This document shows, piece by piece, positions 54,970 through 58,255 of a stretch of DNA of 64,000 nucleotides. The stretch is taken from the NCBI RefSeq assembly GCF_013167455.1, contig NZ_CP038328.1. One strand, 5' to 3'. Made by a program: the position numbers and the translations under genes. How positions within the stretch are numbered: position 1 is the first letter of the stretch; each line of letters starts with the position of its first letter. Source of the stretch: Escherichia coli O157:H7. Lineage in GTDB: Bacteria > Pseudomonadota > Gammaproteobacteria > Enterobacterales > Enterobacteriaceae. The notes under the pieces were generated by a model that had not been told where the DNA came from, did no database searches, and saw nothing but the letters and a program-made list of their open reading frames with translations.

Positions 54970-55764
54970 ATGGCATTTAAGATCTGGCAAATTGGTTTGC
55001 ATTTACAACAGCAAGAAGCGGTAGCGGTTGCTATTGTGCGGGGCGCAAAAGAATGCTTTTTGCAACGCTGGTGGCGGTTGCCGCTGGCGCACGACATTAT
55101 CAAAGATGGGCGGATTGTTGATGCGCAGCGGCTGGCTAAAACGTTGTTACCGTGGAGTCGCGAACTGCCGCAGCGCCATCACATCATGTTGGCGTTTCCC
55201 GCCAGTCGCACATTACAGCGGTCATTTCCGCGCCCGTCGATGTCCCTCGGTGAGCGGGAGCAAACGGCCTGGCTGTCCGGGACGATGGCTCGCGAGCTGG
55301 ATATGGATCCGGACTCCCTGCGCTTCGATTACAGCGAAGACTCACTCAGTCCCGCCTATAACGTGACTGCCGCGCAAAGCAAAGAGCTGGCAACGCTGCT
55401 TACTTTGGCAGAAAGGTTGCGTGTTCATGTTAGTGCGATCACCCCGGATGCCAGTGCATTACAGCGATTCCTGCCTTTTTTACCTTCTCATCAGCAATGT
55501 CTGGCCTGGCGTGATAACGAACAGTGGCTGTGGGCGACGCGCTATCGCTGGGGGCGCAAACTGGCGGTGGGGATGACTAGCGCGAAGGAGCTGGCGGCAG
55601 CGTTATCCGTTGATCCCGAAAGCGTCGCGATATGTGGCGAAGGCGGATTTGATCCTTGGGAGGCCGTTTCTGTTCGTCAGCCGCCGTTACCGCCGCCAGG
55701 TGGAGACTTTGCCATCGCGCTGGGCTGGCGCTTGGGAAGGCGTACTGATGAACCCGCCAATTAA
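54970..55764 (+). CDS. hofM: DNA-uptake / type IV pilus assembly protein HofM (PilM-like)
   Basis: MAFKIWQIGLHLQQQEAVAVAIVRGAKECFLQRWW...; start uncertain (ORF track 54943); first gene of the hofMNOPQ cluster divergent from mrcA. Confidence 0.85.
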   Translation: MAFKIWQIGLHLQQQEAVAVAIVRGAKECFLQRWWRLPLAHDIIKDGRIVDAQRLAKTLLPWSRELPQRHHIMLAFPASRTLQRSFPRPSMSLGEREQTAWLSGTMARELDMDPDSLRFDYSEDSLSPAYNVTAAQSKELATLLTLAERLRVHVSAITPDASALQRFLPFLPSHQQCLAWRDNEQWLWATRYRWGRKLAVGMTSAKELAAALSVDPESVAICGEGGFDPWEAVSVRQPPLPPPGGDFAIALGWRLGRRTDEPAN

Positions 55765-56287
55765 TTTTTTGCCCTGGCGACAGCAACGCCGGACCGCTTT
55801 TCTTCGTTTCTGGTTGCTGATGTTCGTTGCGCCTCTGCTGCTGGCCGTCGGGATAACGCTAATACTGCGTCTGACAAGCAGCGCCGAAGCTCGCGTAGAC
55901 GCCGTTTTGCTTCAGGGGGAACAACAACTCGCCCGCAGCTTACAGATAACCAAACCACGTTTGCTGGAGCGCCAACAAATTCGTGAGCAGCGTTTGCAAA
56001 GGCAGCGCCAGCGACAATTTACCCGCGACTGGCAATCTGCGCTGGAAGCACTGGCGGCGCTTTTACCCGAGCACGCCTGGCTGACAACGATAAGCTGGCA
56101 GCAGGGAACGCTGGAGATCAAGGGGCTTACAACAAGCATTACCGCGTTAAACGCACTAGAAACGTCACTCCGCCAGGATGCATCTTTTCATCTCAATCAG
56201 CGGGGGGCCACGCAGCAGGATGCGCAGGGACGCTGGCAATTTGAGTATCAGTTAACAAGGAAGGTTAGCGATGAACATGTTCTTTGA
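55748..56287 (+). CDS. hofN: HofN (PilN-like)
   Basis: 179 aa, MNPPINFLPWRQQRRTAFLRFWLLMFVAPLLLAVG...; overlaps hofM by 17 nt. Confidence 0.88.
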   Translation: MNPPINFLPWRQQRRTAFLRFWLLMFVAPLLLAVGITLILRLTSSAEARVDAVLLQGEQQLARSLQITKPRLLERQQIREQRLQRQRQRQFTRDWQSALEALAALLPEHAWLTTISWQQGTLEIKGLTTSITALNALETSLRQDASFHLNQRGATQQDAQGRWQFEYQLTRKVSDEHVL

Positions 56288-56711
56288 CTGGTGGTTCGCC
56301 ACATCACCCCGCCTCCGCCAGTTTTGCTGGGCATTCTGGTTGCTGATGTTAGTTACGCTCATTTTTCTGTCATCGACACACCATGAAGAGCGCGACGCAT
56401 TAATTCGACTACGGGCAAGTCATCATCAGCATTGGGCCACACTGTATCGCCTGGTTGACACCACTCCCTTCAGCGAAGAAAAAACGCTGCCCTTTTCGCC
56501 ACTGGATTTTCAGTTGCCCGGCGCACAACTGGTTTTCTGGCATCCATCCGCGCAGGGAGGCGAGTTGGCGTTGAAAACGCTGTGGGAAGCAGTGCCGTCG
56601 GCATTTACACGGCTGGCAGAGCGCAACGTCAGCGTGAGCCGTTTTTCATTAAGCGTGGAAGGTGATGATCTTTTGTTCACCCTACAACTGGAGACGCCGC
56701 ATGAGGGTTAA
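56271..56711 (+). CDS. hofO: HofO (PilO-like)
   Basis: 146-aa ORF, MNMFFDWWFATSPRLRQFCWAFWLLMLVTLIFL...; overlaps hofN by 17 nt. Confidence 0.88.
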   Translation: MNMFFDWWFATSPRLRQFCWAFWLLMLVTLIFLSSTHHEERDALIRLRASHHQHWATLYRLVDTTPFSEEKTLPFSPLDFQLPGAQLVFWHPSAQGGELALKTLWEAVPSAFTRLAERNVSVSRFSLSVEGDDLLFTLQLETPHEG

Positions 56712-57105
56712 ACGCTGGTTGTTGGCAGGTATTGCATTGTGCCTTTTAACCGGTATGCGTGACCCTTTTAAACCGCCGGAAGATCTATGCCGGATTAGCG
56801 AACTTAGCCAGTGGCGCTATCAGGGGATGGTAGGGCGAGGCGAGCGCATCATCGGTGTAATAAAAGACGGGCAAAAGAAATGGCGACGGGTGCAGCAAAA
56901 CGATGTGCTGGAAAACGGCTGGACAATTTTACAGCTGACGCTAGACGTACTAACGCTGGGTACCGGGACAAACTGCGAACCGCCACAATGGTTGTGGCAA
57001 CGGCAAGGAGATACAAATGAAGCAATGGATAGCCGCACTACTGTTGATGCTGATACCCGGCGTACAGGCGGCAAAGCCGCAAAAAGTGACGCTGATGGTG
57101 GATGA
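56701..57105 (+). CDS. hofP: HofP (PilP-like lipoprotein)
   Basis: 134 aa, MRVKRWLLAGIALCLLTGMRDPFKPPEDL... (lipobox LLTGM uncertain); start trimmed from 56662. Confidence 0.85.
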   Translation: MRVKRWLLAGIALCLLTGMRDPFKPPEDLCRISELSQWRYQGMVGRGERIIGVIKDGQKKWRRVQQNDVLENGWTILQLTLDVLTLGTGTNCEPPQWLWQRQGDTNEAMDSRTTVDADTRRTGGKAAKSDADGG

Positions 57106-58255
57106 CGTTCCGGTAGCTCAGGTGTTGCAGGCGCTGGCTGAACAGGAGAAGTTGAACCTGGTGGTGTCGCCAGACGTCAGCGGTACGGTGTCGTTACATC
57201 TAACAGATGTTCCCTGGAAGCAGGCACTACAAACTGTAGTGAAAAGCGCCGGACTGATAACGCGCCAGGAGGGCAACATTCTCTCAGTGCATTCCATTGC
57301 CTGGCAGAATGACAATATCGCCCGTCAGGAAGCGGAGCAGGCGCGGGCGCAGGCAAATCTGCCGCTGGAAAATCGCAATATTACTCTGCAATACGCCGAC
57401 GCCGGAGAGCTGGCGAAAGCTGGGGAGAAGCTACTGAGTGCCAAAGGGAGTATGACCGTCGATAAACGCACCAATCGCCTTTTGCTACGAGATAACAAAA
57501 CGGCGTTAAGCGCCCTTGAACAGTGGGTAGCGCAAATGGATCTGCCGGTCGGGCAGGTTGAGCTGTCGGCGCATATTGTCACCATTAATGAAAAAAGTTT
57601 GCGTGAGTTAGGCGTGAAATGGACGCTGGCCGATGCGCAACACGCTGGTGGCGTTGGGCAAGTCACCACGCTTGGTAGCGACCTCTCCGTAGCGACGGCG
57701 ACAACGCATGTCGGTTTTAACATTGGGCGCATCAACGGACGTTTGCTGGATCTTGAGCTTTCCGCGCTCGAACAAAAACAGCAGCTGGATATTATCGCCA
57801 GTCCGCGTCTGCTGGCCTCACATCTTCAGCCTGCCAGCATTAAACAGGGGAGCGAAATTCCATATCAGGTTTCCAGCGGGGAAAGTGGCGCGACGTCGGT
57901 GGAATTTAAAGAGGCCGTCCTGGGGATGGAGGTCACGCCCACGGTGTTACAAAAAGGTCGCATCCGGCTGAAATTACACATCAGCCAGAACGTTCCGGGG
58001 CAGGTGCTACAGCAGGCCGATGGCGAAGTGCTGGCGATTGATAAGCAGGAGATCGAAACGCAGGTCGAGGTCAAAAGCGGAGAAACGTTGGCGCTGGGCG
58101 GCATTTTTACCCGTAAAAATAAATCGGGTCAGGATAGCGTGCCGTTGCTTGGCGACATTCCCTGGTTCGGGCAATTATTTCGTCATGACGGAAAAGAAGA
58201 TGAACGACGCGAGTTAGTGGTGTTTATCACGCCACGACTGGTTTCCAGTGAGTAA
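57017..58255 (+). CDS. hofQ: secretin HofQ (DNA uptake outer-membrane channel)
   Basis: 412-aa ORF with signal peptide MKQWIAALLLMLIPGVQAAKP; secretin C-domain; overlaps hofP by 89 nt. Confidence 0.93.
   Translation: MKQWIAALLLMLIPGVQAAKPQKVTLMVDDVPVAQVLQALAEQEKLNLVVSPDVSGTVSLHLTDVPWKQALQTVVKSAGLITRQEGNILSVHSIAWQNDNIARQEAEQARAQANLPLENRNITLQYADAGELAKAGEKLLSAKGSMTVDKRTNRLLLRDNKTALSALEQWVAQMDLPVGQVELSAHIVTINEKSLRELGVKWTLADAQHAGGVGQVTTLGSDLSVATATTHVGFNIGRINGRLLDLELSALEQKQQLDIIASPRLLASHLQPASIKQGSEIPYQVSSGESGATSVEFKEAVLGMEVTPTVLQKGRIRLKLHISQNVPGQVLQQADGEVLAIDKQEIETQVEVKSGETLALGGIFTRKNKSGQDSVPLLGDIPWFGQLFRHDGKEDERRELVVFITPRLVSSE

Follow-up and report, generated by a model that had tools for sequence, protein, structure and literature searches.

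The last two genes of the hofMNOPQ (yrfDCBA-hofQ) operon of Escherichia coli O157:H7, hofP and hofQ, overlap by 89 nucleotides (nt) in the same direction, and this overlap can best be seen as a by-product of the code of the neighbouring signal peptide: the hofP frame, having entered the 5' end of hofQ, would passively run on until the HofQ sequence first leaves room for a stop. We place the probability of this explanation at about three in four. The DNA examined is a 64,000-nt window of contig NZ_CP038328.1 of E. coli O157:H7, which serves as the reference for all coordinates below. The products of the operon are PilM/N/O/P-like inner-membrane and periplasmic alignment proteins together with the outer-membrane secretin of a cryptic DNA-uptake machine induced via Sxy and CRP-S sites. 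The operon, its overlaps and the frameshift flag on the O157:H7 hofM gene are already present in public annotation and are known biology; what is at issue here is where hofQ begins, why the hofP frame extends so far into it, and which of the four overlaps are ancestral.

The case for a passive origin rests first on the offset between the two frames: each hofP-frame codon takes its first base from the third position of a hofQ codon and its other two from positions 1 and 2 of the codon that follows. Because of this offset, a stop can arise in the hofP frame only where T closes one hofQ codon and AA, AG or GA opens the following one. Within HofQ codons 1–28 a stop is possible, under any synonymous choice, at 2 of 28 junctions (A19/K20 and V28/D29), as against 26% in the rest of hofQ, and the hofP frame stays open through the signal peptide because the codons of hydrophobic residues cannot supply a stop. 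The actual hofP TGA, at the D29/D30 junction (GAT GAC), is the third possible site. A null model, in which hofQ was rewritten with synonymous codons drawn according to each species' own usage, points in the same direction: for the recoded E. coli gene the median run-on comes to exactly 89 nt, with a probability of 0.61–0.66 of one at least that long, and across 74 species the mean probability that a simulated run-on equals or exceeds the observed one is 0.54, making the observed run-on typical of simulation. Open runs in the same frame elsewhere in hofQ reach up to 57 codons, such that one of 29 codons is unremarkable.

The comparative data bear on the same point. Eighty species loci were gathered with HofQ, the genes being delimited by tblastn and rules for starts and stops, and the counts given here for species are over 79 Enterobacteriaceae species. 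In 64 of these the hofP stop lies at the V/D or D/D junction of the conserved HofQ motif V-T-L-x-V-D-D, and with the stop held at a fixed motif the length of the overlap therefore tracks that of the signal peptide. It is 89 nt in 38 species and 80–98 nt in 65, with a full range of 4–140 nt, and most species have a HofP of 130–138 amino acids (aa) and a HofQ of 409–415 aa, the lengths of both proteins being consistent among orthologues. The matches listed for HofQ were close relatives (at least 82% identity), and more distant operons were reached via a HofP profile run against cluster representatives and via three contigs (L084, L085 and L086, of which L085 ends before hofQ). The metagenomic operons of L084 and L086, with HofQ proteins 59% and 50% identical to that of E. 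coli, share the layout: their hofM/hofN overlaps are 4 nt, their hofN/hofO overlaps 14 or 8 nt, their hofO/hofP overlaps 11 nt and their hofP/hofQ overlaps 62 and 74 nt. Within the Enterobacteriaceae the hofO/hofP overlap is 11 nt in 65 species and the hofN/hofO overlap 17 nt in 48. From this distribution the hofN/hofO, hofO/hofP and roughly 89-nt hofP/hofQ overlaps are evidently ancestral and conserved across the family.

The origin of the long overlap might accordingly be pictured as follows. The ribosome-binding site (RBS) and ATG of hofQ lie directly after the part of hofP that codes for its folded PilP-like domain; the hofP frame would then run on through the signal-peptide codons of hofQ, which are nearly stop-free, and would close in the conserved V-D-D with which mature HofQ begins, among the earliest places where a stop can form; and the resulting 29-residue HofP tail would be disordered and largely unconstrained. 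Read in the hofQ frame, the same 89 nt encode the HofQ signal peptide followed by 11 residues of the mature protein, and end two bases into D30. Such an origin fits the 3'-extension model of gene overlap, which operates without a need for selection (PMC3887535).

An AlphaFold2 model of HofP built with 76 orthologues places a beta domain at residues 36–101, with a predicted local distance difference test (pLDDT) score of 84–90 for residues 31–100, and its best structural matches are PilP (3JC8_P, 2IVW, 2LC4 and 2Y4X among the matched structures) and the HR domain of GspC. The tail, at residues 108–134, has a pLDDT below 50 and is predicted to be disordered. At the other end of the protein (56701–56770), HofP reads 'LLTGM-RDPF' and lacks a conserved lipobox cysteine, and in distant family members (P0211–P0319) Ala-x-Ala-type sites stand ahead of an R-D/N-P-F sequence; because of these two features HofP, unlike PilP, is probably not a lipoprotein.

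The strongest of the rival explanations is that the tail is functional, for example by contacting HofQ or the cell wall, and that the 89 nt are truly dual-coding and kept by selection on both frames. Several observations favour it and weigh against an entirely passive run-on. A hydrophilic tail of 20–30 residues is carried by HofP of nearly all Enterobacteriaceae, and by more distant members of the protein family as well, and an overlap of at least 80 nt is retained in 88% of species, as against 63% expected under recoding, a difference that could reflect weak selection or simply shared ancestry. Certain synonymous positions within the overlap are also unusually invariant, namely I5 as ATA, a rare isoleucine codon, in 47 of 51 cases (57029–57031), L26 as CTG in 59 of 64 (57092–57094) and D29 as GAT in 59 of 64 (57101–57103), all of which lie at the bottom of the distribution of same-residue columns in hofQ; the overlap codons have a mean percentile of 0.26 relative to same-residue columns elsewhere in the gene. 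Third-position diversity at four-fold sites is likewise lower in the overlap than elsewhere (0.38 vs 0.565, P=0.005), a comparison of 7 columns only that is confounded by codon family. Finally, codons 25, 26 and 28 look more variable in the species where hofP stops early, a hint of relaxed constraint that comes from 11 mutually related species.

Against a functional tail stand several other results. Identity of the tail between distant species is 27%, where 17.5% is expected from the HofQ constraint and codon usage, and this excess of 0.095 compares with 0.076 ± 0.039 (maximum 0.167) for control virtual peptides read in the same frame elsewhere in hofQ, with no extra constraint detected; nor did the same-residue comparison and this alternative-frame control together disclose a clear second-frame constraint. 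The conserved HofP motif 'NEAMDS' and the terminal 'GG' are accounted for by the other frame, which encodes MKQWI, the start of HofQ, and the V-V-D residues. Within Escherichia the tail varies at sites that are silent in hofQ, and in 12 of the 79 species, belonging to at least five separate species groups, earlier hofP stops shorten it to six different lengths, with overlaps of 4, 38, 59, 62, 77 or 80 nt; three further species have a longer run-on, with overlaps of 122–140 nt. Selection for GAT at D29 as a means of holding the hofP stop was also considered, and it is weakened because D29 is still GAT in 10 of 11 species in which hofP has already ended. Taken with the predicted disorder, these results make a functional, dual-coding tail unlikely, and there is similarly only a slender chance for the broader proposition of a genuine, ancient overlap of about 90 nt in which either the HofP tail or the position of its stop would be under selection, for example for tuning HofQ initiation or for a periplasmic role.

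A separate feature of this segment is the Chi octamer GCTGGTGG, spelled by the conserved T/S-L-V-V codons (hofQ codons 24–30 in loci L005–L083) in 35 of the 79 species; the equivalent position of the window, 57086–57106, reads GCTGATGG and is not Chi. The match is probably a coincidence of codon usage, but some of the low synonymous diversity in this stretch could stem from it.

Two sets of database sequences depart from the usual hofP/hofQ arrangement. In two metagenome-assembled genomes (L051:906-1217 and L053:3241-3558, the latter labelled Leclercia), the genes meet in a 4-nt ATGA overlap, with a relative frame unlike that of all other species, which therefore points to an insertion or deletion (indel) near the 3' end of hofP; another genome labelled Leclercia, L058, keeps an overlap of 86 nt. 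The databases also contain HofP-HofQ fusion proteins (P0076, P0045 and P0060), of which P0076 is 517 aa long with 29 member sequences. A true fusion or programmed frameshift was rejected because the hofP and hofQ frames are separate in 78 of the species examined, and the simplest explanation for these proteins is a 1-nt indel or an assembly error immediately 5' of the hofQ start.

A second rival is that the 89-nt overlap is itself adaptive, tightly coupling the translation of hofP and hofQ for output of the two proteins at 1:1, much as an earlier note on this DNA had concluded from the overlaps themselves. It gains something from the organization of the operon, in which four of four junctions overlap and each downstream RBS lies inside the upstream gene, with pairing energies to the anti-Shine-Dalgarno (anti-SD) sequence at the 3' end of 16S ribosomal RNA of -6.4 kcal/mol for hofN, -8.3 for hofO, -6.4 for hofP and -8.5 for hofQ. 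It is also in keeping with the position of the hofP stop, which in none of the 78 intact operons lies 5' of the hofQ start (it does so in one further species, through an early hofP nonsense codon), and with models of type IV pilus machines that include both PilP and PilQ homologues (3JC8). Short overlaps with internal RBSs plausibly favour translational coupling, and at hofM/hofN, hofN/hofO and hofO/hofP the upstream stop does lie within about 20 nt of the downstream start. At hofP/hofQ it does not: here the stop lies 89 nt beyond the start, which would be a long distance for reinitiation and probably a poor position for termination-reinitiation coupling. The length of this overlap, moreover, is the default set by the HofQ sequence and ranges widely among species, and constraint on the tail is no higher than the null. 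An RNA structure hiding the hofQ RBS, which translation from upstream would melt, was sought and rejected, the RBS being unpaired in the predicted minimum-energy fold (z-score +0.7). The RBS itself, kept as AAGGAG or AAGGAA across species, is a strong one typical of an independently initiating gene. On these grounds hofQ probably initiates de novo on its own RBS rather than by reinitiation after the hofP stop, and ribosomes translating hofP would at most keep this RBS open or transiently block it. An overlap length shaped for coupling is thus improbable, and the 89 nt are no evidence for the coupling that the earlier note read from them.

The reading of the overlap as a passive run-on presupposes that hofQ begins at 57017, and that start is well supported by several features of the sequence. 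There are three in-frame ATGs 5' of the hofP stop, at 57017 (M1), 57047 (M11) and 57095 (M27), for which anti-SD pairing comes to -8.5, -3.1 and -1.5 kcal/mol, where the background of the region is -2.9 ± 2.7. In the alignment, 62 of 64 species have a start codon at position 1, and 8 of 64 have one at position 11. M1 alone provides a positively charged, lysine-bearing N-terminus, a hydrophobic core of 13 residues and a V-Q-A cleavage motif; the peak hydrophobicity of its N-terminus is 3.3, as against 1.4 and 1.3 for those from M11 and M27. HofQ aligns to Vibrio cholerae PilQ (6W6M) from residue 23, and the conserved PilQ-type sequence starts at residue 22–23, because of which a start beyond the hofP stop would lose the signal peptide and a part of the N0 domain (its first strand, conserved residues 22–30). 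Past the hofP stop the first in-frame starts are GTG at 57122 and TTG at 57125, which have a weak RBS (-3.0 kcal/mol), and no credible downstream start was found there. The earlier note had chosen 57017 on the basis of the signal peptide, with alternative starts and initiation past the hofP stop as the points on which the choice might fail, and the choice stands on all of these counts.

The public records are divided on this start: on identical DNA, RefSeq has hofQ beginning at 57017 in the records annotated by the Prokaryotic Genome Annotation Pipeline (PGAP) and in K-12 (412 aa), and at 57047 in Sakai (402 aa, with a 59-nt overlap), and the form from 57047 is without a usable signal peptide. 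That the long overlap is an annotation artefact, with the true start at M11, M27 or past the hofP stop, is highly improbable, for although the Sakai record speaks for it, the later starts have weak RBSs, position 11 is rarely a start codon, a secretin must be exported and has its signal peptide from M1 alone, an overlap with hofP would persist from M11 (59 nt) and from M27 (11 nt), starts past the stop would remove conserved N0 residues, and orthologues agree in the lengths of both genes.

This last point bears on a more general rule. In a survey that covered 338 genomes, the 715 co-directional overlaps of more than 60 bp were all judged to be mispredictions, and holD/rimI, at 32–56 bp, was given as the longest real case (PMC2478687); the supplementary lists of the survey make no mention of hofQ, yrfA, b3391 or b3392. 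Like holD/rimI, hofP/hofQ is a co-directional overlap conserved among enterobacteria in which both genes keep consistent lengths from one orthologue to the next, and it differs in being 80–98 nt in most species, beyond the 60-bp limit of that survey. Judged by the survey's own orthologue-length criterion, hofP/hofQ is a real and conserved exception to it.

The first junction of the operon has a rather different history. In the window, hofM and hofN overlap by 17 nt because of a 1-nt deletion in a G-run at 55722–55724 near the hofM 3' end, where GGGG has become GGG (ctgGGGGctgg to ctgGGGctgg), as read from an alignment with K-12, four other Escherichia genomes, Citrobacter and Salmonella. The deletion swaps the conserved HofM C-terminus LALGKAY for the 12 residues WRLGRRTDEPAN and shifts the stop 16 nt downstream; in K-12, hofM codes for 259 aa and overlaps hofN by 1 nt. 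Short queries, chosen such that each 28-mer within them crosses the G-run, recovered the deletion allele in 294 and the intact allele in 5128 of 5426 complete E. coli genomes. The carriers among those listed are O157:H7 or unlabelled strains with genomes of similar size, and at least one strain labelled O157:H7, PV15-279, has the intact allele. PGAP flags the hofM gene of EDL933 as 'frameshifted', a pseudogene ending at 55748. Of the 79 species, 60 have an overlap of 1 or 4 nt at hofM/hofN, and 17 nt is seen in the window only; the ancestral state is, on this comparison, evidently a 1-nt TGATG overlap, with the 17 nt derived and specific to the O157:H7 lineage. All four overlap lengths given by the earlier note are exact for the window, and this one is the product of a frameshift rather than a feature of design. 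A second lesion is seen in Escherichia albertii NBRC 107761 (L004:3685-4089), where hofP has a nonsense mutation at codon 34 (GAA to TAA) with the remaining frame intact; together with the O157:H7 hofM frameshift it suggests that the hof operon occasionally decays.

As for transcription, yrfD (hofM) is induced 16-fold by Sxy via CRP-S sites, and the genes have been treated as a yrfD-hofQ operon (PMC1635313); Sxy-dependent DNA uptake requires hofQ (PMC3330819). The promoter fragment used in the published electrophoretic mobility shift assay (EMSA) can be located in the window by its primers (Table 1), and it falls wholly inside the 5' coding part of the divergent gene mrcA (start at 54850), 150–275 nt upstream of the hofM ATG. 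A scan for the CRP-S core gave only weak matches, with 3 mismatches, at 54705–54720 and 54786–54801. A consensus scan of the + strand found no promoter-like or terminator-like sites inside 54970–58255.

The identity of the locus is secure. Window positions 54800–58400 match many E. coli O157:H7 genomes, Sakai and EDL933 among them, at 100% identity, and all 5425 complete E. coli genomes have a copy of this segment. In annotation the gene order is hofM-N-O-P-Q, flanked by the divergent mrcA and the downstream aroK, and the boundaries of hofN, hofO, hofP and hofQ in the PGAP and K-12 annotations equal the open reading frames (ORFs) of the window; the overlaps, all on the + strand, were taken from the ORF listing and read directly, the hofM/hofN one being 17 nt. 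Genes of the PilN, HofO and HofP families (Pfam PF05137, PF25319 and PF10748) sit in that order between hofM and the secretin. HofQ matches PF07660, PF03958 and PF00263 (the secretin N0/STN, Secretin_N and C-terminal domains), all above their Pfam cut-offs, and the NCBIfam model for HofQ, NF007851, spans residues 1–412 of 412; at 1e-5 no NCBIfam model matched HofM, HofN, HofO or HofP. HofM has only a sub-threshold match to the Pfam family T2SSL (E=0.0038, 17.1 bits vs a cut-off of 25.5) and is annotated as HofM by PGAP, and its homologue in the distant locus L084 has a weak match to PilM_2. The gene identities put forward in the earlier note are those of the annotated O157:H7 genomes. Downstream, the start of aroK also differs between records on identical DNA (window 58455–59177), being placed at 58500 in Sakai, for a protein of 225 aa with a long N-terminal extension, and at 58656 in PGAP and K-12, for one of 173 aa.

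Table 1. Mapped features of the hofMNOPQ region, in window positions
Feature	Position	Strand	Remarks
yrfD (hofM) promoter EMSA fragment, reported with two CRP-S sites	54694-54819	+	PMC1635313 primers map exactly
hofM (PilM-like), O157:H7 allele, 264 aa	54970-55764	+	RBS AAGGAG at 54955-54960
hofN (PilN family), 179 aa	55748-56287	+	Pfam PF05137 E=1.6e-9; RBS GGGAAGG at 55734-55740, within hofM
hofO, 146 aa	56271-56711	+	Pfam PF25319 E=2.4e-24; RBS AAGGAAGG at 56257-56264
hofN/hofO overlap, 17 nt	56271-56287	+	
hofP (PilP-like), 134 aa	56701-57105	+	Pfam PF10748 E=1.7e-79; RBS GGAG at 56690-56693
hofO/hofP overlap, 11 nt	56701-56711	+	
hofQ RBS AAGGAG, 6 nt 5' of ATG	57005-57010	+	Written by hofP codons Q102-G103-D104
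hofQ secretin, 412 aa	57017-58255	+	Pfam STN, Secretin_N and Secretin domains
hofQ signal peptide MKQWIAALLLMLIPGVQA	57017-57070 (codons 1-18)	+	Predicted from sequence
hofP/hofQ overlap, 89 nt	57017-57105	+	HofP residues 106-134 in one frame
hofP stop TGA	57103-57105	+	Last base of hofQ D29 (GAT) and first two of D30 (GAC)
Terminator-like hairpin and T-rich run just past hofQ stop	58259-58282	+	Consensus scan only

A parallel may be drawn at several distances with known systems. Nearest is the hofMNOPQ operon of E. coli K-12 (b3395-b3391), which is alike in its five genes and their order, in the overlaps of 17 nt at hofN/hofO, 11 nt at hofO/hofP and 89 nt at hofP/hofQ, and in a HofQ of 412 aa and a HofP of 134 aa, and which differs in its hofM of 259 aa with a 1-nt overlap, the window having 264 aa and 17 nt through the O157:H7 deletion. 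The yrfD operon has been treated as the orthologue of comA-E, the Haemophilus influenzae genes, and of pilM-Q (PMC1635313). At a greater distance, the PilMNOPQ subcomplex of type IVa pili (in Pseudomonas, Neisseria, Myxococcus and Vibrio) shares the PilN domain, the secretin domains and, between HofP and the PilP HR domain, a similar fold, and the likeness of HofQ to V. cholerae PilQ extends from residue 23 to the end. The pilus proteins differ in that the listed PilQ chains are 571–901 aa long, as against the 412 aa of HofQ, in that HofM lies below every Pfam threshold for PilM, and in that PilP is a lipoprotein, which HofP, lacking a conserved lipobox cysteine, probably is not.

None of this changes current knowledge of the DNA-uptake machine. 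The value for annotation is that, between the two RefSeq starts of hofQ, the evidence favours 57017 over 57047, and that hofM of O157:H7 has a 3' frameshift specific to that lineage, which should not be taken for a designed 17-nt overlap. At the same time, hofP/hofQ offers a clean counter-example to the rule of thumb that co-directional overlaps of more than 60 nt are mispredictions. More broadly, an upstream frame that enters the coding region of a signal peptide meets almost no stops, and this may explain other long overlaps at the 5' ends of genes for exported proteins.

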